From Sporopachydermia quercuum (lineage: Eukaryota): DNA of 64,000 nt. Positions within the stretch are counted from its first letter, which is position 1. The number at the start of each line of letters is the position of its first letter. The position numbers were made by a program, and so were the translations under genes. Below the pieces are notes generated by a model. It was given only the letters and a program-made list of their open reading frames with translations, did no database searches and had not been told where the DNA came from. Location: assembly GCA_001599295.1 (NCBI GenBank), contig BCGN01000008.1:806001-870000 (forward strand), given 5' to 3'. Shown here piece after piece: positions 3,629 to 61,540 of the stretch.

Positions 3629-4648
3629 TTAAAATGCTTTTGCCACATTATTTCTGTCAGTCTCTGTAGCGTAATTTGCAAATACGTCTTCGTCACGGTA
3701 TTCGACTTCCTCTGGTGCAATTTCATTATTATGAGCAGCAGCAGCTAATTGTCTATGGGACCTTCTGAAATAAAAGATTCCAAACACAATGGCAATGAGC
3801 AATGGAACACCAATTCCGACAGTACAACCAATAATGATGTTCTTATCTCTTCTAGATAGTGATGATGAAGATGTTTCAGGCGCAAGTGTCTCTGATGATC
3901 CAGCAGCAGTTTGTATAATTGTTTTAGTGATGACTGAGTTTCCCGAAGTAGTTATTGACAATATAGTAGTTGGGGAGGGGGTGATAGAAGAGAATGATGA
4001 TGTGATAGTGGAACTTGAGCTTGTTGAGGAAGAACTCGAGGAGGTTTCGGTTGAAAATTCAGACGAGGATTCAGACGAGGATTCAGACGAGGATTCAGAC
4101 GAAATTTCAGACGAAGTAGTCGAACTGACACTCTCAATAGTTGACGATGGCGAAGGTGAAGGTATAAATGTAGAAGTTGCAAAATCATCAAAATCAGTTG
4201 TGGCGGAAGTAGAAGAAGTAGAAGTAATTTCTGGAGTACTGGTATCAGGAGCTGACTCGACGTCTGATGTAAAAGTATCTGAGGTTGTCACGCCAGTGTC
4301 CTCTAAATCGGTTGTGATTTCGGGTGAACTAGTTTCTGGATCTAAGCTCTCTGTTGGATCAATTTCGGTTGTAATATCAGAGCTGCTAGTAACCAATGTT
4401 GAATCAAAAAGCTCAGTTAATCCTGAAATAGCTGTACTGTTATCTATTTCATCTTGTCTTCTATAAAGTACTGTTCTTGATCTCTCATGGGGGTCATCGT
4501 GCATGTCAAACACAGGTATTGATGGTAGATCCAATCTATCAATGTGTCGTAGCAACGAATGTATCCTTTCAAATACGGCTCCTCTTGTAGTGTTGGTGGC
4601 AGCTGCTGAGACCACTAAATAGCCCACTAGAAATGCTGATATTTTCAT
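3629..4648 (-). CDS. Mid2/Mtl1-like cell wall stress sensor (signal peptide, Ser/Thr-rich stalk, single TM)
   Basis: The juxtamembrane/TM segment SLSRRDKNIIIGCTVGIGVPLLIAIVFGIFYF closely resembles Mid2. Long S/T stalk and short acidic cytosolic tail. Confidence 0.8.
   Translation of the reverse strand: MKISAFLVGYLVVSAAATNTTRGAVFERIHSLLRHIDRLDLPSIPVFDMHDDPHERSRTVLYRRQDEIDNSTAISGLTELFDSTLVTSSSDITTEIDPTESLDPETSSPEITTDLEDTGVTTSDTFTSDVESAPDTSTPEITSTSSTSATTDFDDFATSTFIPSPSPSSTIESVSSTTSSEISSESSSESSSESSSEFSTETSSSSSSTSSSSTITSSFSSITPSPTTILSITTSGNSVITKTIIQTAAGSSETLAPETSSSSLSRRDKNIIIGCTVGIGVPLLIAIVFGIFYFRRSHRQLAAAAHNNEIAPEEVEYRDEDVFANYATETDRNNVAKAF
4057..4116. repeat. 12-bp coding tandem repeat (ATTCAGACGAGG x3 plus 2 degenerate copies) encoding SSES units in the sensor stalk
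   Basis: Direct reading of the sequence. Confidence 0.9.
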
Positions 4649-14723: not shown

Positions 14724-17700
14724 ATGACAAGTGATACGCAAAAAGATTACTATAGGATTCTAAANTTGTCGTTTTCTAGCACTGAAGATGAAGTACGAAA
14801 TGCATATAAGACACTTGGTAAGTATTGATACAGTTCAGGTCATTTTGAAGAATCGACAAAGCTGTAAAACATTCCTCACATGTTATAATTCAGGAATTTT
14901 GCTCGAATTTCTGTTGCCTTATTTTTTTCTATTTTCTTAATAATTTTTTAGTCACATGCTAACAATTCAGCACTGCAACATCATCCTGACAAAGTTGGTG
15001 GAAATGGCGAAAAGTTCAAAGAAGTGCTAGCAGCTTACAAAACACTTTCAGATACTCATAAAAGAAGAATATATGATCAAACATATAAATCAACGTTTGG
15101 TAGAACTAGTTCCTTTTCTTTTCAAGAAAAAGCATCATACACTGGAGGTATGTTTATTTGGATTATTTTTTATTTCGGACTGCATGGATGATATTAATAT
15201 GGTTGGTAAAACATATATTTTCCAACCAGTTGCTATACGATCTACTGGTTTGTTTTTTATGGATAAACTAACATATAAATTCTTTCTTTCAGGTTTCCCA
15301 TCTGGATTTCCACGGTCTAAACCTAAGTCGGCTTATGATTATGCAGCAAGAAATAACTCCAGCTCAAAAAAGTCCAACAGTCCTCGAAATGATTCTCAAA
15401 ACAACAACAATAACAACAATTCATACTCTTATAGATATTCCAACCATTATCAGAGCAAGCCGAAGAACAGCAGTAGCAGAAATACCAGTTCATCAAACAG
15501 CAGCCCATACAGTTCTACTCATTCCAAATCCAAGCCCAGTGCGACACAGAGTCCTAAACCAAAGTTCAACACCAAACCAGCTTCCAGCAACAACAAGAAG
15601 CCAGAACCAAGTAATAACACTAAGCCATCTTTTACTGCTAATGCCTCTGATCTCAAGTCGTCTTCATTTCAATCATCATCCACTAAACATCCAGAGAAAG
15701 AAACAAGTTTTACAAGTACTATTGATGATTGGAACTTTACTAGGACATCGTACGCTTTTAAATCCACTGGACCTGAGGAGATAAGCTCAAGAAACCCTTC
15801 TTCTAAGAACAATAAGAAGGCAGAGAATAAGAGTACTAGTAGTCCCCATCATGCAACAAATGGTGAGTCACCAAGTACTGATAACAACAATACTACCAAC
15901 GATAATAATGCCACAGAAACATCTAATACTGGCCCTAGTACGAAGGCTACTTCTAGAGGCGATTGCAATACTAGTTTCAAATCTAACTCTGAAAAATTTA
16001 CCTCAAGTTCTGAAAATACGAAAAACGCTCGAAGTACAGACACGACACCAGAAAAGTCTAGACCAAATATCAATAATTCTACGAAACCTAATATATTTGA
16101 TCAATCAAGCCCTTCACCATCTAAGCCAAATTCTACCAGCAACATAGAAACACCAGGCACTAAAAGGAAAACCACGAAACCAAAGGCTGAGCCAAGTTTT
16201 AGGAAAGACAGCAAGACATTAAACAGACCTCTGGCAGTTCCTAAAACTCGATTGAACAGTATGCATACTGAAGCTGGAAAAGGTAAAGAAAGTACCAACT
16301 TCGATGATGATACAATTAAATCGTCTACAGGAACAGATACACAACACAATAATAGTAGTAATACCAATAGTAGTTTCGGTAATGCTGGTAGTACTAGCAA
16401 AATGTCTAACACTACTAATACAACACCTAGTAGCGAGAGCTTCAAATTCGATTTCGTGTTCAATCAGCAATCAAATACAACTGATGGATCCAGGGAATCA
16501 AGCCAGACTCCAACATCGGCCCAATCAAATACAAGAAAGCAAAGAAACCCTAGGAAAGTAAACCCATTCTTTAGAACAGGCAATACTCCAACATCAAACT
16601 TATGGCCCAAAGATAGTTCAATGAAAGCTGGGAATGGATTCACTAGTGCTAATATTCGCAATAGTAATGCTAGTCCTATAGAAACCTATAGCAAAACTGC
16701 TTTCAACCTTTTTAGCTTTGACTCTTCTGGTAGGCAAAGTGGCAGCAACATATTCACCGTTCCACATTCAAAATCCGCTAAAGAAGCTCAACAGCAAGAT
16801 AATGGAAGCAATGTTTTTGAAAGTAAAACCTTCAATGCAAAAGATTCAAGCGATGAACCAGCCAAAAAATTCTCAGAAGAAGACAAAGAAGGCAAAAAAG
16901 TAGACATAGAAGACATCGAAGAAACCTTGGATGATAGCTTTTCAACAGACGACATTCTAGATGAATTTGAGTTCGATTTCAGGACACCTCAAAAAGAAAA
17001 GGATGGAAGAAACGCTAAGAAACTGTCTGAAGAGAACGTGAAAGAATGCTCATCATCCTTTGATACTCAGAAAACCTCAGACACTTCTTTTGACTTTAAA
17101 CCGATGTTCAACGTTCCTCCATTCGAAAATAACCAGTTTTCGTTCAGTAGACCTGATACTGATAACAACGATACTTCAACCAGCAGCAGTAGCAAAACGT
17201 GGAAATTTCCTGGGATCGATGAGGGAAATCCCAGTACATTTGCATCTGCATCTTCAAAGACAACTTTTGGCTCAACTGCTACAGCTTCTGTTTCTGAGAC
17301 ACAGGAACCAATTTATGATCCTGATACAAGCTCAGACTCTGATGATGAATTTATGGCTTCATTTAAGAATTCTTTTAAAGGGGGCAAAAGTAAGCCTCGC
17401 CACCAAACCAGTAGCCCATTTGATCAATTTCTGAGTAAGGCATCCAATGACTACGAGAAATTTGATTCTGATAAAGTGAAAGCGAATATAAGACAATTCT
17501 TGAACCAGCCAAAACTTATCACACTAGAGAATCTAATACCAATGGAACTTGGAGATGTTACACAGCTCAATCCGCCAAATTTACCACAGAATCCGTCATT
17601 TGTTAACAAATACTCAATCGCTGTTTACTTGAAAACTATAGAAACATACATAAGTCAATGGAATACATATAATTCNACAGTATTATACTATCTGCAACGA

Positions 17701-17883
17701 AGACAATCCATCTCTGAAGCAAAGCTACCAGAATGTTTCAGTGCTAAGGAAAACTTGGATGTGTATTTGCAAGCGGAGGAGATAGATGAAGGAATATCCA
17801 CTAGATGGAGTCAAGCAAGAATTTTGCACAATAATTTTATGAAATTGTTTGCTGCACTTTTCGTTCGAGAAAGATTATCATAA
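14724..17883 (+). CDS. Large class C J-domain protein (Jjj2-like): J-domain, about 800-aa Ser/Asn/Thr-rich disordered region, C-terminal helical domain; exons 14724-14817, 14971-15147, 15293-17883
   Basis: Exons 1-2, missed by the ORF track, give [16 protein letters not shown]...[16 protein letters not shown]...[21 protein letters not shown]. Introns: GTAAGT..TGCTAAC..CAG and GTATGT..AACTAAC..CAG. The splice restores the frame of ORF 15073..17883. Confidence 0.88.
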
Positions 17884-18752: not shown

Positions 18753-21572
18753 ATGAACCTGCTTACAAGACATTCACTATTAGTAATAGGTGTGATATTT
18801 CATATTGTCTATCTATGGAGTATCTTTGATATTTACTTTATCAGTCCATTAACCCATGGAATGCTTCAACATGTCTCAACTCTGAATCCACCAGCAAAGA
18901 GGTTGTTTCTTATAGTGGGTGATGGCCTAAGAGCAGATAAATGTTTGGATAAAGTAGTTCACCCTATAACTGGAGAAGCAGAATATTTGGCTCCTCATCT
19001 GAGGGATATTATCAACAATAGAGGCACATTTGGCGTATCTCATACCCGCATGCCAACAGAGTCACGTCCGGGACATGTTGCAATAATTGCTGGTTTCTAT
19101 GAAGATGTAAGTGCTGTAACTAAAGGCTGGAAAGAAAATCCAGTTGATTTTGACTCTGTATTTAATCAGTCGTCTCATACCTGGTCTTTCGGATCACCAG
19201 ATATCTTACCAATGTTTGCTACTGGTGCTTCTGACAAGGACAAGGTTGAAACTTTTATGTATGGTCATGAGTTTGAGGATTTTTCGAAGACTTCAATTGA
19301 ATTAGACACTTTCGTTTTCAACCACGTAAGAGACTTGTTTGGAAAAGCCAGAGGGGATAAAGAATTAAAAGCTAAACTTCATTCTGAACAGATAGTGTTT
19401 TTTTTACATTTACTTGGTTGTGATACTGCAGGGCATTCCTATAGACCATATTCTGCTGAGTATTACGATAATGTCAAGTATATTGACGGAGAAATTGAAC
19501 AACTTGAAAAGTTGGTACAAGAATTTTATAATGATGATCAAACTGCGTTTGTTTTCACTGCTGACCATGGAATGAGTGACTTTGGTAGCCATGGTGATGG
19601 TCATCCGGATAATACTCGTACCCCAATTATTGCCTGGGGAGCTGGCGTGAATACCCCAGTGAAAGGAGAGAAAGGTGATCATGATGAATTTTCAGTCCCA
19701 TGGGAATTAAACAATGTTAAACGAAATGATATCAATCAAGCTGATATTGCTCCATTGATGTCTTATTTAATTGGCTTGAACTATCCTGCAAATTCGGTAG
19801 GTGAATTACCACTAAACTTTTTATCGGGTGCTGAGCATGATAAGCTGCAAGCTCTTTTGGCAAATTGCATGGAAATCGTTGAACAATTCAGAGTTAAGGA
19901 AACAAAACAGAAACAAGTGCAAATCAGGTTCACTCCTTACCCTGATTTTGAGGGCGAAGGAAATTCCATCGATGATAGATTACATAGAATAGAAGAATTA
20001 TTGAATAGTGAAAACTCAATTGACCATGATAATGCTATTGCTCAAACAGAAGACCTTATGAAACTTGCTTTGGAAGGATTGAACTATTTGCAGACNTACA
20101 ATTGGTTTTTCCTACGAACGATGATTAGTTTTGGCTTTTTTGGATGGATTCTATTTGCAATCACATCTTTCATGAATATGTATGTCATTCCAGAGAAAAA
20201 AGATAGGCAACCAGGTTTACTATTGAAGTCCATTAGTATCGGCAGTTTAGTAACTCTTTGGGGTGTGTTCCTAAAAGAGGAATCGCCCATCAATTATTAT
20301 TTCTATTCAGTGTTCCCTGTTTTCTTCTGGACTGTAATTATTGGTCATAGAAATACTCTTGTTCAAGGACTGAGACTACTAGCTGTTAGAGCTAATGAGA
20401 AATTCCCATTCACCTATGGAGCTTCTGTTTTAATCGTCACATTTATGTTCTTAGAATCCATGGTTTATGGTTATTTCAATAGAGATATCTTCACCGTTAT
20501 TTTCATCTTGCTATCATTTTGGCCTTACTTGCAAAACTTTGAAATAGCAAAGGAGAATTTGGAATATTCTATCTCATGGACAGTTTTTTGTTTATTTTCA
20601 AGTATATTTACATTACTACCTGCTAACAAGGAAGAATCTGCACTACTAATTACCTTTGGAGGTGTGTTAATGATACTTGGTGGCTTATTTGGTTTATATT
20701 CAATCAAGAGAAACCCTCAAATCCAGCTAAAGCAAACCACTGAATATCTATTGTTGACTCAGCTGATATTAGTCATAGCTTGCCTGGTAGTTACTCAAGC
20801 AGCAATTACTGCTTTAGAGAGAAAGGATGGTTTACCATTTTACCTACAAATATTGGGCTGGATCACATTACTTGGATCAGTTATTATTCCTGCTTTCCAT
20901 AGTTTGTCTGTGAATACAAATAGTGATGTAAGAATGCTGACATTGTTTTTAGCATTCTCTGTGCCTTTCATTATTCTTACAATCTCTTATGAAGGTTTAT
21001 TCTTTGTTGGCTTTAGTGGAGTATTATTAACATGGGTTAAACTTGAAGAGCTATTTTACGCCAGGGATGAATCCAGAAATAAAGGAATATCATTGAAGTT
21101 TATTAGAGTTGCTTTGTTTTCATTTTTCTTTGCTCAAGTTGGCTTCTTTGGTACTGGTAACATTGCATCTATTTCATCATTCTCATTGGATTCAGTCAGA
21201 AGATTGATTCCTATTTTTGATCCTTTTGCCATGGGTGCTTTATTAATGTTCAAGCTCTTACTGCCATTCACTGTTTTGTCATTTGCTCTAGGAATTCTCA
21301 ATATATCATTCCAAGTAGAAGAATCGTTACTTTTCACCATTGTTATATCCATATCGGATATTCTATCGGTGAATTTCTTTTATCTTGTAAGAAGGGAAGG
21401 AAGTTGGCTTGATATTGGAACAAGCATATCTAATTATTGTATTGCTTGTCTAATGAGTTTGTTCATCATTGGGTTGGAATACGTCAGTGCTGTTATGGTA
21501 GCGGGCATTATCAATGACACTCCTACAGAAGCTACAAAGAGTAAGAAAGTGATAGATCATAAAGATGATTAG
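18753..21572 (+). CDS. MCD4: GPI ethanolamine phosphate transferase 1 (PIG-N)
   Basis: [83 protein letters not shown]. Multi-TM C-terminal half. Confidence 0.98.
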
Positions 21573-24551: not shown

Positions 24552-26576
24552 GCTGTAGCGTCTTTTTTTGCTAGTTTAATGTAAACTGCAGTAACCAACG
24601 AGATAAGATATTCTTTCTTGATCAGAAATTAAGTAAAGCTATAACCGATATAGCATAACTTACGACATTGAGATCTTCAGAGTTAAGCAATGGAACGAAC
24701 CTTTTATCAGCTGAAAATATGGTATTTCGTATTGAATAAAAAGTTGAATCAATTATCAATGAACTATATTTTATTGTATCATTTTGACTTCTTGAAGAAG
24801 ATATTGATATTTTCCGCCAACATATTACAGCAAACTAGTACATTAGAAAATTTAAAACCCTTCTTTCAAGGATTCTTTATACGAGTAGTATTTTTTTATA
24901 TTGATAGACTCGGGACTGGTCTTTAAGGTTTAACTCTTAAAAATTAAGCTATACTATAGAAACCTTAACTACACAGTGGTAAGAGATAAGGAGTTTGGGA
25001 GAGTAAGGTATCTGTTNCGGTAATATGCTGAATGTGGATGAGAAAGGAAAATTAGGTCAGAATCCATGAGGAGAAAAGTATTGACAGAGGAAGTGGAATA
25101 AATTACTGAATGCCGGTAATAAACGGTGCATAGTTTTCAGGTTTACAGGACTTATTGTGGAGATTTATAAAAGGGATCATTATTATATTGCCAATTAAAT
25201 CATAATACACACATACAGCAATATTTTCCGTTGTTCAACCAAAATAAGATTGGCAATAAATAGAGCATTATTAATCGATGATATGGGATATGTTTATCAA
25301 CGGGAAACATACGAAAAGCGGTTATGGATTATAAGCTTGATGATATCTTGATATTTAATTGANCATTTATAAGCTATTTTAGCAGCTGAATGTTAATACC
25401 AATTCTTCTATTTGCTCATCGACAGTCGGTGATCCTTTAGTCTTATATTCATTGCGGATCATTCTCTGACCGATGATCGGACGCATAATTATGCATACCA
25501 AGTGGGCTTGTTATCTTCGTACATGAGAGGCTCCACAGCTCATTTATTACAAATGCAGTTCACCAATTGAAGGAAAAAGAGAACATGTAGATTTCACTAC
25601 AAGAAATGATGAGTGGTTGAAGATTTCCATGATAGGCTGTTGAATTTATCGAACAATTATAATCATCAAATAAGAGTACTCTACTACTCTTGAATTTCAT
25701 AAGAGCATCCGTTAAACATAATCGATCTCTTATTACAGAAATGAACAAGAAGAGACGAGATATAGGTCTCAAAGTCGGATTAATATGCAAGTCTATGCAT
25801 AGTGTTTTCATAGGCGTTTCAGAGGCTTAAGTTACTACTAGAAGTAAAAATTAGTGGATGAGATGAGAACGGAATATACATCCTACAATGGTTATATTTA
25901 TATAGCAGCTTGCGCTTAGTTTCAATCGANGAAAAAGGATTCAGCTGAGAGAGTATTATAACCAGTTGTGACATTTGGCGCTTAAGAATATTAGATGTCA
26001 TTTATTGTCTTATTTCCACCGCCTGTTATTGAATAATAATGCTCATATTTAATTTTCATGATCTTCGAACTATGAAAATCTTCAACACTGATGGCTTTCC
26101 TTACTTCCAGATGAAATTCTCTTGTTGTATGCAATTCCCGCAGTTCGTATTTTTTCCTTTACATTTAATGAATAATCAAAAGCAACTTCCTGCAAGTATA
26201 CATTAACATGCATTGTAATTTATTTCTTCTCAAAACCTAAACCTCATCAAATGGACAGTCNATCCGGGACATCACCTACTTAACTATCGGATGAACCATC
26301 TTATACTTCTCTTAGGAAGACGATATGAAATAATTAGAACAGACAGATAATAGTATCATCAATTAATTTAAAGCATAAATAAGAAACAGTCATTATTGTT
26401 GTTTCCGGACTAGAAATTTGATTCCTCTGTATACTGATACTAATATTGTGATAGAAGAGTCCTAAGTCCCCTCGCATTATTGTTTACATCGTTTGCGTGT
26501 TCTGCGAGGTACTCGTATTTTGATAGCCAGCCTAACAAATTAAAGAAGTTCCTAGCAGATAATTAAGTCAGAACTA

Positions 26577-29483
26577 ATGGAAGAGCTTCAGGATGTATTT
26601 CACCCTGCTCTAAGGGATGTTTCCAAGCCAAAAGTAGATTCACACTCAAATGTAAATGATGATATATATGGTAACTCTTTTACTCCTATTGCTGAAGGAG
26701 TATCCACAATTATCTCTAATGATACATCTGGAGACCGACTAGAAGGTGCAGTATTTACAACAGAGATATCTCCCGAATTGAAGTCATCAAAAGGAAAATC
26801 ACTGAAAAGAAAATCAAATAACTCACCTGATAAATCAATCAAAAGATCAAAGATTCCTTCTCATTATAAAAAGTTTATCGCTAAGCATTATCAATCACTA
26901 GCAGAAGGCAAGAAACGCCATTGGGTTTATTCTCACTACACATTAATAGGAGAAAGACCTTCTTATAGCGCTAATAATACTGTTGACTCAGATGATCCAG
27001 ATTTTGACTATACTGATGTGTTCTGGGTCTGTAAGCATTGTGGAAGACAAGTTGTAAGAGAATCTACGCGATATGAAAATAATGTTAAGCTCCGACATCA
27101 TCTAGCTATCAAGGGATTACATGGCTCATACTTCTGGGACAATAAAGGTGTTAGACATGAAATCAGTAACGAGGAAGACATAAAAAGTACGGGGAGAAAT
27201 GTGAGATCAAAAATGACATATTACGAAAGTAAACCCCGGTTCAAATTCGATGTAGGGAAGTCGGGAGCTGACGACCACTCAGTATATTCCAGTATAAATG
27301 GAAGAGAAACAGATGACAATGTAGTTGAAGATGATAATTTAATGGAAATGACTATCAAAAAGATTGATGAAGTGACTGTGAAATCTGGAAATGAAGTAGA
27401 GACGGAAAAGTCCTCTGAGCAACTGCGAGAACAGTTTTTTGCTCACACGTTAAAGTTTGTTGCTGCAACAGGTATGCCATTTGCGTTAGTATACACTGAT
27501 CCAATGATGAGATTACTAGCAGCAAAGTCTCAAATGACTTTTGATGTCAATAGTAATCAAGGAAACAGTTTAAGACTTTATGCTGATAGATTCTTTTCTA
27601 TGTATAAGCAGTCCATCAAACGTCTATTGGATGTAAATGCGGTTAGTATTTGCATTGTGGTTGATAGTTGGACAGTAATGACTGACTTGGATGGCCCGGA
27701 ACCCTGTGAAGTGTATGGTGTATTTGGTTCATTAATAGATGCCAAGTTTAAACCTGTGAAGGTGCTACTTGATGTTGTGAGAATCCCTGGACTAGACGAT
27801 ATATATAATGAAGCCATTGGGATTGAGAAGCGGTCTGAATTACAACAACAATACTTAATCAATGGTTTACTTGATATACTATGTTTTTATGAGTTAGAGG
27901 AAAAAGTGTTGACATTCTGTGGTGATCATAAGAATACATTACTGATGGCTTCTATTAAACATTTATCGGACAAGCTTGTAAAGAGGTTATCAACTACTAT
28001 CAATAATCATAGTGGTAGTAGATTCATGTTTGATTTGCCGTTTGTTAAGAGCATTAACAGCGTATTCAAACAAATATATAAAAATTTGATTGCAAGTATT
28101 TTGACATCATCAACGACTAAAGAAGAACCATTGTCGCTAGAAATGGAGATTCTCACTAAGGTATCGATTTTTGTCAAACATATATCCGAGAATTTTGATA
28201 CCTGGATGAGATATGAATCAGATATTCGACCAGGTAACGTCATCCCACTGTCATCAGTAGTACGATTGTTGGAGGAATCAAATACTTTTAGTGTAGAATC
28301 AGAATATTATTATTCAACCATTGTACCTTTATTATCAGGTATGCTTTTCTACAGAGACTCAGTAATAGCTTATGCTGAAAATTTTCCTGAGCTAGAGGTA
28401 CCAGCAGTCAATTTAGAAACGTGGGGATATATGTATTTGCTCAATAGATCATTGGAACCGTTACACTCCTTCTTGGGGATAAGCAGTCTTCCAAATGCTT
28501 CAGTTCANGCATCAGGATATGATTTTGATGTTCTGTGCAGACACTTGTATCATTGCAAGAATGAAACAGTGAGATATTCTGTTCAAAAAAGCTCTATTGA
28601 AGTATCGCCGAGTTTTAGCTTTGCATCTGCATTGATTTCCTGCTATAATGAATGCATGGAATACTATAGTAAACTCTCAACATCTCCTTTCTATGTAACT
28701 GCTGCTTTACTGTCGCCTGATAATGCTAGATTTCACTTACCAGTCGTTGCTGCTTACTCTACAGGTAGAACTCCAGACTCATTAGATAACGTTAATGTTG
28801 ATAACATGGAAATTAACGAATTGGTTTCTAATGTGTCTTCCTTCTGTGATAAGCAATGCAAGCTGCNGTTAGACGGTAAAAGCTGGACCGAAGTCATTTA
28901 TGAGTATCTGGAGGAAGTAAAACAAGTCGGTCAAATATTTGGTGATATCTTTCAGTTTTGGAAACACCATGGATCTAATTGGCCCACTATGTCTAAAATT
29001 GCAAGAGATATACTATGTGTTCCAATGGCTAATGAGAATGTTTTAGATTTATTATTGAAACCGGTTTCACTGAAAAGTACTGCTGGAATAACAGGACCTT
29101 CTGTTTCTGCTGCTATTTCTAGTTTAGGTTTCAATACTAATATTGATTTTGGATTGACTAATATACAACTGGCAGCAGCAGCAGCAGCTGAAGCTGGTAT
29201 AAATCATGGAAGCATCCAGTTAGGAGATAATTATAGTCGAGCTTCTACTGAATATGGGACTAGTAGTAACCATGAAGGTATTCCCAGTCGTACCANTAAT
29301 AGTGGAACATCTGGTATGACGTATCAAGGACAAGAGGGATATTCAATCAAAGAGGACGAGCTAGATTTAATGTTAGGAAAGAAGATAAATAAAGGGAAAG
29401 TGTCATTGTCGGGCTTGAAAGCAGCTATTTTGCTTAAGTTTTTCGTATCGGAGGAGACAGCTTGGAGTAGTATAATGAGTTAG
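26577..29483 (+). CDS. hAT-transposase-derived protein (BED zinc finger, RNase H-like core, hATC dimerization domain); probably domesticated and catalytically degenerate
   Basis: BED: HWVYSHY...VCKHCG...LRHHLAIKGLH. KFVAATGMPFALV. D1: VVDSWT. D2: LTFCGDH. AALLSP. hATC: EVIYEYL...IFQFWKHHGSNWPTMSKIARDILCVP. CxxH, RW and the SxxxERxFS Glu are absent. No TIR or TSD seen. Confidence 0.85.
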   Translation: MEELQDVFHPALRDVSKPKVDSHSNVNDDIYGNSFTPIAEGVSTIISNDTSGDRLEGAVFTTEISPELKSSKGKSLKRKSNNSPDKSIKRSKIPSHYKKFIAKHYQSLAEGKKRHWVYSHYTLIGERPSYSANNTVDSDDPDFDYTDVFWVCKHCGRQVVRESTRYENNVKLRHHLAIKGLHGSYFWDNKGVRHEISNEEDIKSTGRNVRSKMTYYESKPRFKFDVGKSGADDHSVYSSINGRETDDNVVEDDNLMEMTIKKIDEVTVKSGNEVETEKSSEQLREQFFAHTLKFVAATGMPFALVYTDPMMRLLAAKSQMTFDVNSNQGNSLRLYADRFFSMYKQSIKRLLDVNAVSICIVVDSWTVMTDLDGPEPCEVYGVFGSLIDAKFKPVKVLLDVVRIPGLDDIYNEAIGIEKRSELQQQYLINGLLDILCFYELEEKVLTFCGDHKNTLLMASIKHLSDKLVKRLSTTINNHSGSRFMFDLPFVKSINSVFKQIYKNLIASILTSSTTKEEPLSLEMEILTKVSIFVKHISENFDTWMRYESDIRPGNVIPLSSVVRLLEESNTFSVESEYYYSTIVPLLSGMLFYRDSVIAYAENFPELEVPAVNLETWGYMYLLNRSLEPLHSFLGISSLPNASVXASGYDFDVLCRHLYHCKNETVRYSVQKSSIEVSPSFSFASALISCYNECMEYYSKLSTSPFYVTAALLSPDNARFHLPVVAAYSTGRTPDSLDNVNVDNMEINELVSNVSSFCDKQCKLXLDGKSWTEVIYEYLEEVKQVGQIFGDIFQFWKHHGSNWPTMSKIARDILCVPMANENVLDLLLKPVSLKSTAGITGPSVSAAISSLGFNTNIDFGLTNIQLAAAAAAEAGINHGSIQLGDNYSRASTEYGTSSNHEGIPSRTXNSGTSGMTYQGQEGYSIKEDELDLMLGKKINKGKVSLSGLKAAILLKFFVSEETAWSSIMS

Positions 29484-31651
29484 ATGTTATGCAACATATA
29501 GCTCCGGCCCGAGTCAACCAAAGATAGGTGATGTGAAGGCAAAGAATGAAATTGTATAATAGGAATAAATTAAATGTTAGTTGATCCCCCTGCAATTGNT
29601 TAATTGTACTGATCGACATCAGTGTCATATAACGTTGTATATCATTGAAAGGCCAGTAGGTAGGAGTTCACTCAATGGAATCAATTGAGTTTGAAGTTTA
29701 TTTAATAATGCATGTAACTGCATAGGTTGTTAGAGCTTATCACAGAGCAATTGATCATTTTCCCCAAATCGGTAATTAAACCATGAGATAAGAATCATTG
29801 TATTACTCATCAAATGATTTATCTATCGAACTTCCGGATGAATATTGATTTTTCCTACAATATAGGAAATTGACTGTCAAACTGTTATATAACGTTTGAG
29901 GTGCACTGAATGCCATAGATTCATATANAATGCTTTATCCTTTCTTATCAAGACGAAATTTCCTGCCTGTTTAGGAACCAATCATCGCCTGGTCTTTCTT
30001 TTCCTTTCTTTCTATATCCTTTAACTTTTTCTTTCCTTATCGATCAGTTACTTAACGTTATATTAATTTGTCCTTTTATTACATGGCTAGAGTTCTCATG
30101 TTGAATATCTCTACCATTTCTATATATTTGATGGGATTCGGTTCGTAACTTGTATGTGACGCAAAATGATTATCGAGATCACTTTACATTGTTGTTAAGT
30201 TGGTAACTGACTTTTATTATATTTATAGATTTCATGTTAGCGCTTATTGATATTATTAACAACAAATGGCCATGTTAATAACTATGCATATAATATTATC
30301 AATAAACTATTCAAATAGCACGTCGTCCAGTTTTTCAATTCGCTCACTAAAGAGCAAGACCATTAGAGATATGCTTCTTGCATCCTACAGGATATGCTCC
30401 TTAAGGTAGTCACTATCATATTCTTTCCCGGTGTCTTTATCCTACATCATGTTCTGGGATTGTTGCTCTGTTGGAAAACACCATCATTCGGGTCAGTCCA
30501 AAAGTATCTCTAANACTGACATGATGATATCCTAAAAGCTTCCAGAGCTTCTTCCATGATTATCGTAGCTTGGATGAGTTATTTTCAATGAGAACTTTCG
30601 TTTCTGACTCTTTTAAGGTTGCTTTAATCTTTTTCTTCCTTTTCTTGGCAGCTTTTCTTTCGATTACATTTAGTTTTTTTTTCTCTTTTTCAATGGGTAC
30701 ACCAATACTATTGATCTAATCTTCTTTTTTGTAAAGGATGTATCATTCAAATTTTGTTCCTTGGTTAACTAATGATTACAGAGTGAGTGTAACTATATGA
30801 CACGTTAGAACGAGGCGATGTAGTTGGACTCAAGTTATTCGTACATTCTTATAGTAATGATCAATCAAATTTTTATAATCTAAACAGTTTATTTTATCCT
30901 TTACAGGCTCTCAAGTATTTTTTGTATTCAGTTAAGATACATTAATATGCAGCAATAATAGGATATGAATCGCAAGGTACAGTTCACTGGTCTGTAAGCT
31001 TCCTTCACTTGCATAAACATTAATGTCTATCTAAAACTGTAAAACGCAAGCAGTCTAAACATGTGACCTTATCTGTCCCATCTCTGGAATATCTCCTCTA
31101 TTTCCGTATCTCTATGATGCCCCCTCCATATTAATGATGAGTTCAATTACTATCGCCATTTCGTCATTTGCTCATCTTATTATTTGTTAATGAGATAAAT
31201 CATTAGACGATTTTAGTTATTAGTTGTAGGCAGGTTTATAAAACTTGGGCAATTTCCATAACGTTCTTAAGGTCTAGGAAAAATAGGAAGTTGAAAGAAA
31301 TGAAAAATTATTACAGATATTACATATAATACATATTTAATAGTAATGTCATTGAGAACAGTACTACCTATTATTTATGCATCGAGAGTGGAAGAATTAG
31401 GACGTTGAGAATAGCAAGAGAGAAAGATCTTGAGGGATTAAGGAAAGTAATTAGAGGATCAGAAGTTATGTCCTAGATGTCTTTCTTGGTGTGAAAATAT
31501 ATATGGAGTATCAATATTTGAAAGTCATTTGATCCAGAATACCCACGGTATACAAGAATTAATGAAGATTTGATCATCATCGTTGACACTGGTAGTAATT
31601 CAGAACACAATTGCAACACAACAGCAATAGCACTTCTAGAAAACTCTCAAA

Positions 31652-49250: not shown

Positions 49251-51047
49251 ATGACAAATCTGTCAATTCAGCCGAAAGAGGCTGTGAAAGAATCGATAGA
49301 TCTCGTTGTTGATTTGCCTTCTATTGGCAATGTTCAACTGAAGGAAGTAAAGGTTGTGAAAGGATCGAATGATGGCTTATATATAGCGTTGTCACCTAGT
49401 AATATTAGCAAGATTCAACGATTAGGTGGCATTGTGAAACCTGTTGAAATCTTGTCGGAAGCTGAGAATGCATATGAATACAATGAAACATGGAGGATTC
49501 AGCAGCAGAACAGTCAAGAGCATGACTCATCTTCTGTTTCTGCTTCTGCTTCTGCTTCTTCTGTAGTAAACATAACCAATGACCAGGAAGGATCAACCGC
49601 TATTACATTCCCCGCGTCAGATATCAATTTAAGAAGAAGAGCCAATACTAATGAAAACCAAGACGAAATACAATATGTACATATCAATATCATAAACGAA
49701 GAAAACAATTTACATGATGAGCATCATCCAGTGATTCTACAACAGAACAGAATCCACAGAATCATCTCCAATATTAATCGTCAGTTTAGAACAGTAATAG
49801 AAATCTGCTCTAGAATATTACTAAGAATTTGTATACGTTTAAGTAATAGCTTTCTGAACATTGTTGTTCTATTAAGGCAATCAGTTTTATTGCTGATAGC
49901 ATATGAGAATATACTGGTTCAAGTACTAGAAGTATTTCCCGAAGGTATAACTAGAAAAATCATGAAATGGGTGCTGATACTTTTTGCTGCTTATTTCGCA
50001 GGTATCTTCAAAATAGTTGAGCAAATTGTTCCCGAAATATTTGATCATCATAGATGGTTGCATAACAGGATACCTTCGCTACGACAAGGAATAGGAAGAA
50101 TGTTTGGTGGTTTGAGTGATAGATTCAAATATTTGCTGGTGCTCATTGTTGATTTCTGTTTTGGTATTAAAAGCAAAGAAGGTGTAGTTGATAGTGTGTA
50201 TGCTGGTTATTTATTATCTATCAAAGGACCTAGTTTAAGAACAGCCATTAATATTTATCTTTTAAAAACTGCAAATGTGAAAGAAATAATATCTCAAGGA
50301 ATAGAAAAGAAGAAAATAAGAAGTCTTATTGGAAATTTCGTTGGTGATAATGAAATCAATGAGAGTGGGAGTAACAATAGCGATTGCAATGATAATTATG
50401 AAGGTTTCTTAATATACGCTAGTGAAATGGAAGATGAATTGAACATGCTATACAAGGTATACACTTATCGATCAAGATATTTGGTTTATTTCATGGTGAG
50501 TCCCCTAGAATTTCTAAAATACTGTTTCAAAGGAATCCTTGCACGATTCATAGTATTTACAATGTCATACTTTGTTCCTTATTATTTCTTGTATATTTTG
50601 CAACAGGAAGTAGTGAGAAAAGAAGCCTATCTTGACGAGGTATACAAGTGTGTTTATGAGGTATTAACATTACATTTGAAAGAGGTTGTCAGCACCTATG
50701 ATTACTGCAAAGGTAACAATGGATTGGCCACGACAATTGATAAATTTGAAGAATATGAAAGAATTCACTCAAGATTGCAGCAATGGTTACCTGATAATGC
50801 TTTACTTGATAGTAACAAAAAAGGAAAATCAGAGCCTGAAAAGAAGCCCCTAGTATTCAAGATGTTGACATATTTAGGATATGATAACATGGCTAACTTC
50901 TCATTAATAGCAAAGTATGACCTTTTGTCTGATGTATCTATATCGGAATTTCGAGATCAGCTTGAATCAGCGAAAGTGACAAACATGTCTGAAAATGAAT
51001 GCGATAATGAAATTACAACAGAAATTACTGATGATCAGATTGAATAG
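49251..51047 (+). CDS. Hypothetical multi-pass membrane protein, 598 aa (possibly Usa1/HERP-related)
   Basis: Long open frame with ATG start and several hydrophobic segments. Weak remembered similarity to fungal Usa1 (YIALSP..KI; FTMSYFVP). The family call is uncertain. Confidence 0.7.
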   Translation: MTNLSIQPKEAVKESIDLVVDLPSIGNVQLKEVKVVKGSNDGLYIALSPSNISKIQRLGGIVKPVEILSEAENAYEYNETWRIQQQNSQEHDSSSVSASASASSVVNITNDQEGSTAITFPASDINLRRRANTNENQDEIQYVHINIINEENNLHDEHHPVILQQNRIHRIISNINRQFRTVIEICSRILLRICIRLSNSFLNIVVLLRQSVLLLIAYENILVQVLEVFPEGITRKIMKWVLILFAAYFAGIFKIVEQIVPEIFDHHRWLHNRIPSLRQGIGRMFGGLSDRFKYLLVLIVDFCFGIKSKEGVVDSVYAGYLLSIKGPSLRTAINIYLLKTANVKEIISQGIEKKKIRSLIGNFVGDNEINESGSNNSDCNDNYEGFLIYASEMEDELNMLYKVYTYRSRYLVYFMVSPLEFLKYCFKGILARFIVFTMSYFVPYYFLYILQQEVVRKEAYLDEVYKCVYEVLTLHLKEVVSTYDYCKGNNGLATTIDKFEEYERIHSRLQQWLPDNALLDSNKKGKSEPEKKPLVFKMLTYLGYDNMANFSLIAKYDLLSDVSISEFRDQLESAKVTNMSENECDNEITTEITDDQIE

Positions 51048-53955: not shown

Positions 53956-55671
53956 ATGCCTCTAATAGAAACACCAAACAGTATTAACGATGGACATGGA
54001 TCAGACTTGAAATGGAAGCAATTAGAAATGGCGAACCTTGAGTTTGACAATGATGAGAAGCTGCGAGCTCAAATACTTGAGCTAGAAGAAGAGTTAAATG
54101 AGTTTCAACAGTCATCACGAGAGTTAGAAGAAGAGCTAGAAAGACAGCTAGAGGAGTCTGACAGCAGGTATGCAGAAGCCTTAGAAGTGCTAGATGAGTC
54201 CAAGAAGGAAGCTAAGTTATGGAAGGTAAGTAAATTAAGATACTTCTGGTTTAATATGTTGTAAGATCTCAATTCTATTTTAGTTTAATCGAATCTTTGT
54301 TTTTGGTTGTTTTATTTATCATGACTATCTATTACTATCTAAGAGGAGAACCTAACAGACGAGAGTTATAGTCTAAATACGAATCGTATCAAACAGAAAT
54401 AACAAACTTTTCAAATGAGCAGCAGATACGGATTTCTAACTTAGAGACTGAAGTTGAACGCTTATCGATTCAACTTCGTGATACTGAAATCTCAAACGAT
54501 GATATTGAACAGAGAGAACGGTATGTAATTGGTAGTATAATTCTCTAATATAGCCTATTGATATCAATAATTGACAATATAACCATACTAACCTATATCT
54601 TTGATTAGAATTGCATCAGCCTCATTAACTGATTTAGAATCAAGATATAACGAAGCCATAGAAAAGTGTATTATGATCGAAAGTGAGCTAGCGCTCAAGA
54701 ATGAAGAACTGTCTGCTGAATCAGCTCAAGTACAACGATTGAAAGATGAGAAACAAGATTTACAGGAAGAATTAGACGTGAAAATGAAAAGGATATTCGA
54801 ATTAGAATCAATGATGGATCTAATAGAGAATAGTAAGGAGGGTATTCTTAATAATAGTACGATCAATTACCACAATAGAAGTAATAGCATCAAACATACT
54901 ATTACTTCTACATCAACATCTAACAGCCACAGCAGCAATAACAATGCTAATACTCACAGTAAACTAAGAAGATCACGAAGTGTTTCAGCTTCAGCTACTA
55001 GAGAAAGTCGGGTGCATAATCTTTCAATTTCTAAGCAAGATAGCCTGAATGCTTTGAAAGATATTATACGTAATGTTAAAGAATTGGAACGGCAATCAAG
55101 AGCTCATGAAAGAGAAAGATCTAGATCATTTTCAAGATCCAGATCTCAATCTCGTGATGCATTTGTTTCTAAAACGCGTTCTAATTCACGTTCTAGTTCA
55201 CGTTCCCATTCACGCACATATTCAAATGCTTCAGATAAAGCAACAAACTATACTACNAGTAGCAATAGTACTAATAATCATAATGCTAATGCTAATACTT
55301 CAACTATTGCTAATAGTAGCATTCCAGGCAATAATAATCATAAGATTCCAACGAACAGCGATATTAAATTATCAACACCTTTATCCCCAATTCCTGCTTC
55401 ACCAATACCGAATGATGAAACGTTTACAGCTAATAGGGCAACAACGATAATTCAATTAGAAACAAGGAATCATTTTGCATTAAGGAAGGCCAGACCGAAA
55501 TCCCCAAGTACTCCTTTACAACAGTCGAAACAAAGGAATCAACCAAAGCTTGATAAGCTAAATGCCAATGTTATTAATAATATTGATGATAATGGAAACG
55601 AAAAATATCATAATAATGATAAGTACTTATTTGATATATCAACGCCTTCCAAACTACGGTATGGTAAATGA
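53956..55671 (+). CDS. NDL1: NudE/NDEL1 dynein regulator; exons 53956-54225, 54372-54520, 54609-55671
   Basis: LEEELNEFQQSSRELEEELERQL, WK|SKYE, LRDTEISNDDIEQRE|R, SLTDLESRYNEAIEK. NUDE_C-like SLNALKDIIRNVKELE. Introns GTAAGT..CCTAAC..TAG and GTATGT..TACTAAC..TAG. Confidence 0.9.
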
Positions 55672-60120: not shown

Positions 60121-61540
60121 TCATTCAACTGGTAGCAACTGTTTCTTCTTTGGTTTTACAATGAATTTTTCATTCTCGATTGGCCATACACCACCAACTT
60201 TTTCTATCAACACCTTCCTGCTGATACTGAGCATAGATTCCAATTCACTGCACTTAAATGAGATATAAGAAGCACCTATCGTCTTTAATGCAGTATCAAC
60301 CATTTTTTCGTACCCTAAGTCCATCATTCTTTTGCTTAATTCATTGGTTTCCTCGCGATACAATTTGAACCAATTGACATAATCTTTGGTTGCCCAAGCA
60401 GTAATTAAATCTTTCAATTGTGTATCAGAAGATAAAAATTTGAACAGGGTTTCAACAGCTTGAGCATTTTCATTCATTACACACAGAGAATGTATTACCG
60501 AGCAAGTAATTATTTCTTTCAGTTCCTCACTAGTCAATTGATTATTCGAGTACGAAACATTAAGAAGATAGGCAACACTTGGTAAATATGATTCAAATTT
60601 ACCATGAAACGCCGCTAATCTGAAAGAAAACAAAGCTATCTCTTTTGTCATTTCTGTTGGTGGAACTGAAAGAATCGCTTCACGTAGCTTCCCTATATTA
60701 CTAGTTAATATTTAAAAATAATAACTGGAAAGTGTCTCCATTTCAATTCAAGACGTTTTTTAATATGTGCGAATAACACTTACTAAGGGCAAAAAGTATC
60801 GAGTCTAGTTTTATTGGTCTCGACCCAGCGGAATTAGTATTGTTGGTATTACTGTCTATTATCTGTTCTTTTATCTGTTCTTTGGTTATTGTATTATCAT
60901 TTGGATTGATACTTTGCAGCAAGTATTTAGTTCCCTCTTTATCGCTTTGTTGTTTGCAGTATAAGACAAACTATGTAGATGTTAATATACTTTTTGTAAT
61001 TATAATCTTTGGAAGTTTTCTCTGTATACCAATTTATTACTTCTTAGCTGCTTTTCTAGAACCAAACGTACCTCTTGTTTGACCTTTTCAAAAAACAATT
61101 GTCTGTCTTTTTCGTTGTCACGAAGCCTAAAAATTATAACAAATCATTAATATCACACAAAATAATAGAAATTATCAGTAACTGTAGTGGCTGACAGCTC
61201 CTTGTTTGAACCAAACATACCTTGTATCCTCACCGCGACTCACTAATCCATATTCCTCTTCTAGCGTTGGATCTGACTTGCTTGCAGCATTTTCCACCTT
61301 GAATTTGTTCCTCCTTTNTAGAATATCATCAAAATTCGACTGAAACCCACCTTGAATTATATCTGTTGAGTTATTTCTAGACTTGTCTCTTCTATTACTA
61401 TTTCTTGTATTCCTAGAAGATCGGGCAGATGATCCGGCGCCAGACGATGATGAGGTGCCGTTNTTATTGGTATTACCAGTACTGTTTCCTCCAAGGTAAG
61501 AATTGGACTTGTATCTATTATATCTATTGTTATTGCTCAT
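60121..61540 (-). CDS. PCI-domain (SAC3/GANP/CSN8-PSMD8-eIF3k-like) protein with low-complexity N-terminus; exons 61540-61221, 61126-61072, 60970-60784, 60692-60121
   Basis: Splicing gives EEYGLVSRGEDT|RLRDNEKDRQLFFEKVKQE|FVLYC...ILFAL|RKLREAI...FHGKFESYLPS...DYVNWF...ALKTIGASY. Donors GTATGT, GTACGT and GTAAGT with TAG acceptors, all in frame. Confidence 0.8.

Follow-up and report, generated by a model that had tools for sequence, protein, structure and literature searches.

The window analysed here, a 64-kb stretch (64,000 nucleotides) of Sporopachydermia quercuum contig BCGN01000008.1 (positions 806,001 to 870,000), contains at 26577-29483 on the plus strand a gene derived from a hAT transposase. 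Its open reading frame (ORF) is made up of 968 codons followed by a stop, with no internal stop, and the chance of a random open frame of that length is about 7e-32 at the base composition of the window. A single N in three of the codons gives X at amino acids (aa) 644, 764, and 907 of the translation. The encoded protein combines a BED-type finger, the beginning of an RNase H-like core, and the first half of the hAT C-terminal dimerisation domain (hATC) with regions that match no known family, and it has lost motifs that hAT transposases use to cut DNA. On balance, it is probably a transposase that was immobilised and then kept by its host.

The clearest trace of hAT ancestry lies towards the C terminus, where the Pfam family PF05699 (hATC) matches aa 776-818 above its cut-off (29.5 vs 21.4 bits, E 6.6e-7; E 9.4e-8 when the segment is scanned alone). 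This match covers only positions 4-47 of the 84 in the profile and contains the kept first helices of the domain, FW...WP..SKIARDIL.VP. The core of the protein is unrecognised by HMMER, and the single protein, searched against PDB sequences, matched nothing beyond noise (one NDUFS1 chain, E 1.5). Against 1,835,955,588 representative proteins, phmmer gave three matches at E <= 1e-3. Two of these (P0002 and P0004) are plant-like proteins that align over the hATC stretch only, and the third (P0003), in which seven short repeats are set against aa 176-216, was rejected as spurious. One word-seeded homologue search gave none of 7997 candidates at E <= 1e-3, and another, made with aa 140-830, accepted matches up to E <= 10 and gave none of 7687.

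Relatives of the core were reached through metagenomes. A scan with the 968-aa protein gave 15 pattern matches, none of which was confirmed, while an alignment of the hATC region with P0002 and P0004 (A1) gave 30 loci from 412 pattern matches. Open frames of more than 600 aa are present in 25 of the 30 and fall into 7 clusters. The ORFs of loci L001-L029 have no introns, measure 662-706 aa, and carry BED, hAT core, and hATC, and from their sequences they look like plant SLEEPER-type hAT-derived genes in plant-associated metagenome contigs. One representative per cluster, or 7 of the 25 plant hAT-derived proteins, made up a second alignment (A2). With hhalign, aa 291-414 match this profile at Prob 92.9% and E 3.7e-7, with IVVDSWT placed on the DLWTS strand that carries the first catalytic aspartate. 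In the PDB, the plant profile itself finds the Hermes transposase (about 1e-12), pairing RWNSTY with RWNSTYTML of Hermes and including the hATC segment IPASSAASERTFS. A tblastn search with the plant relatives also matches the window at 28875-29030, in hATC, and a language model likens aa 1-643 to hAT/ZBED1 RNase-like clusters (0.90-0.95).

Structural modelling gave a similar picture at lower quality. The single-sequence AlphaFold model is unusable, with a predicted local distance difference test (pLDDT) score of 31.3, and a second model, built on an alignment of hAT-derived proteins, is of low confidence at 42.1. Among the Foldseek matches listed for the second model, ranks 1-10 are all Hermes chains, with E values from 2.5e-3 to 3.3e-2, all above 1e-3. 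Because of the hATC domain, the core alignment that includes the first aspartate, and the position of Hermes as best PDB look-alike, descent of the 968-aa ORF from a hAT transposase is well supported.

The catalytic motifs of the protein can be divided into those kept, those lost, and one that is ambiguous. Both hhalign and MAFFT place D363, within VVDSWT, in the column of the first catalytic aspartate, on the D of DLWTS. The tryptophan of the D-x-W pair is kept as W365, and D363 corresponds approximately to Hermes D180 through the aligned range (model 258 to Hermes 174). The second aspartate is probably D450, in VLTFCGD, which MAFFT aligns gapless with FDD of the plant relatives and which lies just past predicted strand 4; we hold this assignment with medium confidence. 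The CxxH column reads S491-I-N-S494, with VKSINSVF set against VRCAAHVL by MAFFT. Cysteine is absent between aa 449 and 653, the only histidines at aa 452-560 are H462, H478, and H535 (H451 lies just outside), and the sole C..H string of the protein, C448-G-D-H451 (27918-27929), overlaps D450. Judged by these columns, loss of CxxH is supported. Loss of the Arg-Trp pair of RWNSTY is likewise supported by alignment, with both residues replaced by tyrosine (Y577-Y579 stand in the R-W-N columns) and S580-T581 kept, although hhalign and MAFFT disagree by one residue in the register of this motif. The ambiguous position is the catalytic glutamate. The region after P816 gives no confident alignment, and the Pfam match ends at aa 818, position 47 of 84 in the profile. 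E820 is the sole nearby candidate, 4 residues past the conserved P816 compared with 7 in Hermes.

Two other assignments were considered for these motifs. Taking C448..H451 as a true CxxH with D433 as the second aspartate gives Hermes-like spacings, but was rejected as less likely because D433 lies inside predicted helix alpha-1 and both aligners match D450 to the second aspartate. To the eye, the last 43 residues (29352-29480, EDELDLMLGKKINKGKVSLSGLKAAILLKF...) look like a second half of hATC moved to beyond the low-complexity insert. Tested as such a displaced half (SERxFSxxG...R..L), the tail at aa 926-960 gave an hhalign Prob of 0.3, no better than 30 shuffles, with no Pfam hATC match, and the candidate was dropped. 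Neither hhalign nor Pfam recognised a second hATC half adjacent to the first, further on, or in the C-terminal helices.

Outside the core, the protein is harder to classify (Table 1). The BED finger falls below the Pfam cut-off (15.2 bits, or 18.7 for the segment alone, vs 20.6; zf-BED E 0.022 and 0.0017, respectively). C152, C155, and H175 align with the BED domain of plant hAT-derived proteins, K171 occupies the column of the first histidine, and H174/H175 and H182 lie nearby, so that by its aligned columns the finger is non-canonical. The acidic linker at aa 186-285 has a net charge of -7, and both models show it largely as coil. In the RNase H-like core, strands are predicted at aa 357-367, 377-387, and 393-402. 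The low-complexity stretch that follows hATC contains 15 Ser, 13 Gly, 11 Ala, and 9 Thr among its 99 residues (aa 827-925) and is coil in the model. It is followed by helices predicted at aa 926-938 and 944-966 in the low-confidence model.

Table 1. The hAT-derived gene, the parts of its product, and its flanks (positions in the 64-kb window)
Feature	Position	Strand	Basis or remark
Intact ORF, hAT-derived gene	26577..29483	+	968 codons plus stop; N in codons 644, 764, 907
Basic stretch aa 72-92 (KGKSLKRK...KRSK), putative bipartite-like nuclear localisation signal	26790..26852	+	By eye, inference only
BED-type zinc finger, non-canonical (C152, C155, H174/H175, H182)	27015..27122	+	Sub-cut-off Pfam match; plant BED alignment
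Acidic linker aa 186-285, little predicted structure	27132..27431	+	Composition, models
hAT N-terminal helices (FVAATGMPF) and first three RNase H-like core strands, aa 291-414	27447..27818	+	hhalign vs A2; model
D363, first catalytic Asp equivalent, W365 kept	27663..27665	+	DLWTS alignment; about Hermes D180
D450, probable second catalytic Asp (VLTFCGD)	27924..27926	+	MAFFT column with FDD; after strand 4; medium confidence
S491-I-N-S494, CxxH column, motif lost	28047..28058	+	MAFFT, VKSINSVF vs VRCAAHVL
Y577-Y578-Y579, R-W-N columns of RWNSTY	28305..28313	+	hhalign and MAFFT
First half of hATC domain aa 776-818	28902..29030	+	PF05699; phmmer P0002/P0004; tblastn with plant relatives
E820, candidate catalytic Glu	29034..29036	+	Spacing from P816 3 residues shorter than Hermes
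Ser/Gly/Ala/Thr-rich low-complexity stretch aa 827-925	29055..29351	+	Composition; coil in model
C-terminal predicted helix pair aa 926-968, no family match	29352..29480	+	Low-confidence model; no Pfam hATC or hhalign match
Upstream intergenic flank	24552..26576	.	No TIR, TSD, tRNA, Rfam family, or Pfam-bearing ORF
Downstream intergenic flank	29484..31651	.	No TIR, TSD, tRNA, Rfam family, or Pfam-bearing ORF

A preliminary description of this locus had reported the uninterrupted 968-aa frame, and the strings it quoted all lie where it put them (CKHC at aa 152-155, nucleotide 27030; D363 at 27663; D450 at 27924; LPFVKSIN at aa 487-494; EYYYST at 576-581; FWKHH at 794; ANENVLDLL at 818-826). Its hATC domain is borne out by Pfam and its choice of VDSW for the first aspartate by hhalign, while its choice of CGDH for the second is supported by MAFFT and by the position past predicted strand 4. 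The low-complexity insert of about 100 aa that it placed after hATC is also present. For its BED finger, the C152, C155, and H175 columns align, K171 occupies the column of the first histidine, and the Pfam match stays below the cut-off. It had further claimed that all the late catalytic motifs were lost, which stands for CxxH and for Arg-Trp but is too strong for the glutamate, given the unalignable region past P816 and the candidate E820. The comparison with Hermes that it proposed, by AlphaFold or profile methods, returned Hermes chains as the ten best listed matches of a model of low confidence.

The surroundings of the gene show no sign of a mobile element. In flanks of about 2 kb, 179 pairs resembling terminal inverted repeats (TIRs) were counted, compared with 190.6 +/- 21.2 in 100 shuffles, and the best candidate for a target-site duplication (TSD) has 2 mismatches, which 77 of 100 shuffles equalled or bettered. 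A repeat search of the gene flanks found nothing convincing. Across the window, there were no candidates combining TIRs with a TSD, vs 0-3 in 20 shuffles. Neither flank contains a tRNA or an Rfam family, and the ORFs within them (43-83 aa) match no Pfam family. Contigs of the source organism were available from two runs (5274 and 2918 records), in each of which a single contig spans a 14.3-kb stretch at this locus with no differences, and no second copy of the gene was found in either at >= 80% identity. Searching the window with the protein by tblastn gave the self-match only. The preliminary description's absence of TIRs and an 8-bp TSD thus held, its suggested inverted-repeat scan of the flanks came out at chance level, and the copy count it called for gave, at >= 80% identity, one contig per run. 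The only further piece matched in either run is a T-rich stretch of 34 nucleotides in the downstream flank (29994-30027), which recurs on a different contig with 4 mismatches and is a short low-complexity repeat.

The gene also resembles its neighbours in use of codons. Its relative synonymous codon usage correlates at 0.92 with that of the other ORFs in the window (range for 22 ORFs 0.41-0.96), and its third-position GC content (GC3) is 0.296. All 18 of the neighbouring ORFs that bear a Pfam family are ordinary cellular genes, as the preliminary description's housekeeping surroundings implied; they include MCD4, GGACT-like, ILT1-like PQ-loop, MFS transporter, RraA-like, DnaJ-X, MRPS5, MED6, and MSS51 genes. 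Of all point substitutions in the hAT-derived ORF, 5.5% create a stop, and an unconstrained frame would stay open after 5% neutral divergence with P of about 3e-4. If the ancestor was canonical, the change of four motif positions (C, H, R, and W) within a frame that stayed open points to selection on the frame, and not on hairpin chemistry.

MCD4/PigN (18753-21572 on the plus strand) served as a control for both the genetic code and the position of the host. Its CTG codons align mainly with Leu, Ile, Val, or Met columns in 60 homologues, and one such column is Leu in 58 of the 60. As these columns are Leu-like, translation with the standard code is justified and, on this alignment, the source organism reads CTG as leucine and is not a CTG-Ser yeast. 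The best match of MCD4 in a library of 5.8 billion proteins reaches only 56% identity, and its best named matches, from relatives among Trichomonascus, Nadsonia, Sugiyamaella, and Lipomyces, lie at 53-55%. The source organism is thus a deep-branching budding yeast with no close relative in the library. At this distance, a fast-evolving protein would be invisible, and a missing orthologue of the 968-aa protein is therefore weak evidence either way. A run from another organism of the same study (X4) contains a 200-nt contig of depth 2 that is identical to 28848-29047, which is probably trace carry-over and not a copy from a relative. Beyond that contig, those of two other organisms gave only pieces of 38 and 45 nt, which are uninformative on relatives.

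We favour, as somewhat more probable than the alternatives taken together, a domesticated origin for the gene: a hAT transposase, now immobilised, that a deep-branching budding yeast has kept in single copy as a gene of its own. The account of yeast hAT elements in PMC4316626 names a coding sequence that is intact, a lack of transposition sequences, presence at orthologous loci, and purifying selection as signs of co-option, and two of these four, the intact coding sequence and the missing transposition sequences, are found here. Tests for an active element failed for CxxH, for the Arg-Trp of RWNSTY, and for TIRs with 8-bp TSDs. The gene cannot excise itself. The preliminary description had likewise proposed a domesticated transposase, and its reading agrees with the hAT ancestry, the intact coding sequence, the absence of TIRs, the single copy at >= 80% identity, and the host-like codons; its claim that all three late motifs are lost is too strong. 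If the gene is domesticated, its product may enter the nucleus by means of the basic stretch at aa 72-92, bind DNA through the non-canonical BED-type finger and the RNase H-like core, and oligomerise through the kept first half of hATC. Its role could then lie in DNA binding, chromatin, or genome stability, as for Vid22/Env11, the ZBED proteins, or DAYSLEEPER. With the transposon ends and some of the cutting apparatus gone but the gene intact in single copy, it is probably a host DNA-binding protein. What chemistry it would retain can be judged from Kat1, whose CxxH mutant is described as nicking DNA but forming no hairpins (PMC4763223). By the same analogy, hairpin-capped double-strand breaks are not expected from the 968-aa protein, and some nicking activity may remain should the triad still be completed by a Glu or Asp.

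Several points weigh against domestication. The argument from selective decay presupposes an active ancestor with canonical motifs. The two structure models are of poor quality (pLDDT 31.3 and 42.1), and the Hermes likeness of the second is not independent of the sequence evidence because its input was an alignment of hAT-derived proteins. The BED finger is sub-threshold in Pfam and is without its first canonical histidine. The retention of D363, W365, and D450 also fits a protein that still cuts DNA. Finally, phmmer, word-seeded, and metagenome searches found no orthologue.

The kept aspartates are the starting point for the view that the protein is a TIR-less but catalytically active hAT enzyme, acting in trans elsewhere in the genome on non-autonomous hAT elements or making a programmed break or nick, as Kat1 or the TIR-free Rover1 transposase of L. 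thermotolerans do. With D363, W365, and D450 in place, a third carboxylate could come from E820 or from the acidic trio E926-D927-E928. The position equivalent to Hermes W319 is still aromatic, as a tyrosine, and Kat1 with W576A is reported to work (PMC4763223). TIR-free transposases are also described as able to mobilise other copies (PMC4316626). However, the CxxH column reads S..S, and the Kat1 change C402A/H405A abolished both hairpins and switching in the experiments of PMC4763223. The half of hATC that would carry the glutamate and the basic DNA-contact residues is unrecognisable, and no element with TIRs and a TSD for the enzyme to act on was found within the 64-kb window. We consider an active enzyme unlikely, although it is the strongest of the rivals. 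At the other extreme, the gene may be a dead transposon copy that recently lost its ends, has yet to gain a stop, and has no host function. The failure of the searches to find an orthologue suits a dead copy, as does the report that hAT relics and TIR-free copies are common in some yeasts (PMC4316626). Such a copy is difficult to reconcile with a core too diverged for HMMER and four replaced motif residues in a frame that has kept 968 codons open when 5.5% of substitutions create a stop. Its codon usage is host-like, and neither a copy nor a relic appeared at >= 80% identity in the contigs of the organism, or in the window by tblastn. This is the least probable of the explanations weighed.

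A third possibility is that the gene is a much-diverged orthologue of Vid22/Env11 and hence an old domestication that has already been described. In layout the two are alike, with an RNase H-like domain after a BED-type finger in about 900 aa (domains of Vid22 as given in PMC8682794). In the Atlas, the protein resembles a 901-aa cluster of 128 members, mostly Ascomycota, named 'BED-type domain-containing protein', with a score of 0.88 on 184 of 256 features. Judging by the length of Vid22, this cluster may be Vid22. A score below 0.9 is a lead only, and no such match was returned by phmmer at E <= 1e-3 among the 1.84 billion representatives or at E <= 10 among the 7687 word-seeded candidates. 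The best detectable relatives are instead the plant hAT-derived proteins. Orthology with Vid22/Env11 is improbable, standing between the active enzyme and the dead copy, though a more remote link to Vid22 is conceivable. A conserved syntenic position and a complex with Tbf1 are further marks of the Vid22/Env11 family. The hAT-derived gene has ILT1-like PQ-loop and MFS genes as neighbours, and over such a distance synteny with Vid22 is expected to say little.

Domesticated hAT transposases have precedents in yeasts, to which the 968-aa gene would add a further case. Sarilar et al. (2015, PMC4316626) describe 37 Rover and 6 Roamer intact TIR-free hAT copies fixed among host genes in Lachancea and Kluyveromyces, and a TIR-free Rover1 transposase in L. 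thermotolerans. As they are portrayed there, these copies are like the gene studied here in having an intact ORF of transposase length, an hATC domain and a BED finger (non-canonical here), no TIRs, and host-gene surroundings in a budding yeast, and co-option is suspected for them as well. By that description, they differ in that their relatives can be recognised, their families have active members, and their orthologues are syntenic, whereas the 968-aa protein has no detectable relative beyond hATC and lacks CxxH and Arg-Trp. Literature searches found no published description of the gene, and a closer relative may stand among the Rover and Roamer sequences in the supplementary tables of PMC4316626.

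A further comparison is Kat1 of Kluyveromyces lactis, a domesticated, catalytic Roamer hAT transposase that serves mating-type switching (PMC4763223). Both are budding-yeast hAT proteins in which D-x-W and a second Asp (probable in the 968-aa protein) occur together with a long insertion domain and a BED finger, non-canonical in the 968-aa protein. According to the same account, Kat1 keeps its DDE triad, CxxH, and W576, cuts DNA to hairpins, and is expressed through a programmed -1 frameshift; the equivalent of Hermes H268 in CxxH is needed for hairpins and not for nicking, and the equivalent of W319 is dispensable. In the 968-aa protein, by contrast, CxxH is S..S, Arg-Trp is Tyr-Tyr, and the frame is single and uninterrupted. 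Hermes itself (PDB 2BW3, 4D1Q, 6DWW, and 8EDG) shares with the 968-aa protein the D-x-W strand, the first helices of hATC, and an insertion domain that is all helical, as judged from a low-confidence model. Hermes works as an active transposase and has D180/D248/E572, C265..H268, and R318-W319 (numbering in part from PMC4763223).

Vid22/Env11 provides the favoured functional model. VID22/YGR071C was put forward as an older domesticated hAT in PMC2675101, and Vid22 is characterised in PMC8682794 as a BED and RNase H-like factor acting in G-quadruplex and genome stability. The likeness extends to a nuclear location, putative for the 968-aa protein, a length of about 900 aa, a BED-type finger with an RNase H-like domain, and the absence of transposon ends. 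The proteins differ in that database-wide searches returned no sequence similarity between them and that the 968-aa protein still has a Pfam-significant half of hATC. The closest detectable sequences are the DAYSLEEPER/SLEEPER-like plant genes, of which a published account is PMC3499209, together with L001-L029. These are intronless ORFs with the same order of BED, core, and hATC, and share 35-40% identity over 42-52 residues of hATC. They are shorter at 662-706 aa, and several keep CxxH and RWNSTY. Overall identity to the plant loci is only 17-23%, so they are not orthologous.

It is possible, if rather doubtful, that domestication took place independently in this early-branching budding yeast lineage, giving rise to a new nuclear DNA-binding factor that kept two Asp, lost the hairpin-forming CxxH, and is unrelated by descent to Vid22/Env11 or Kat1. 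If so, the protein might nick DNA at specific sites or, with no catalysis, clamp it, in the service of genome stability or gene regulation. DNA transposons are scarce in budding yeasts, yet hAT transposases have repeatedly become host genes in them. A very diverged further case would offer an independent data point on what survives (BED, the first Asp strand, and the first hATC helices) and what is given up (CxxH, RW, and the second half of hATC). The gene is a tractable single-gene target for deletion and chromatin immunoprecipitation, and the general picture is unchanged by it.

Some further features of the window were noted. Pfam gave no family at E <= 0.001 for four ORFs, at 15073-17883 (+), 49251-51047 (+), 54673-55671 (+), and 60121-60651 (-), which encode 936, 598, 332, and 176 aa, and the first of these, the 936-aa ORF, matched none even at E <= 1. 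The window contains 46 isolated N (e.g., 28508, 28867, and 29296), which have the appearance of masking and not of assembly gaps. A 225-aa ORF at 3789-4466 (+), probably spurious, overlaps in antisense a Mid2-like cell-wall sensor gene at 3629-4648 (-).

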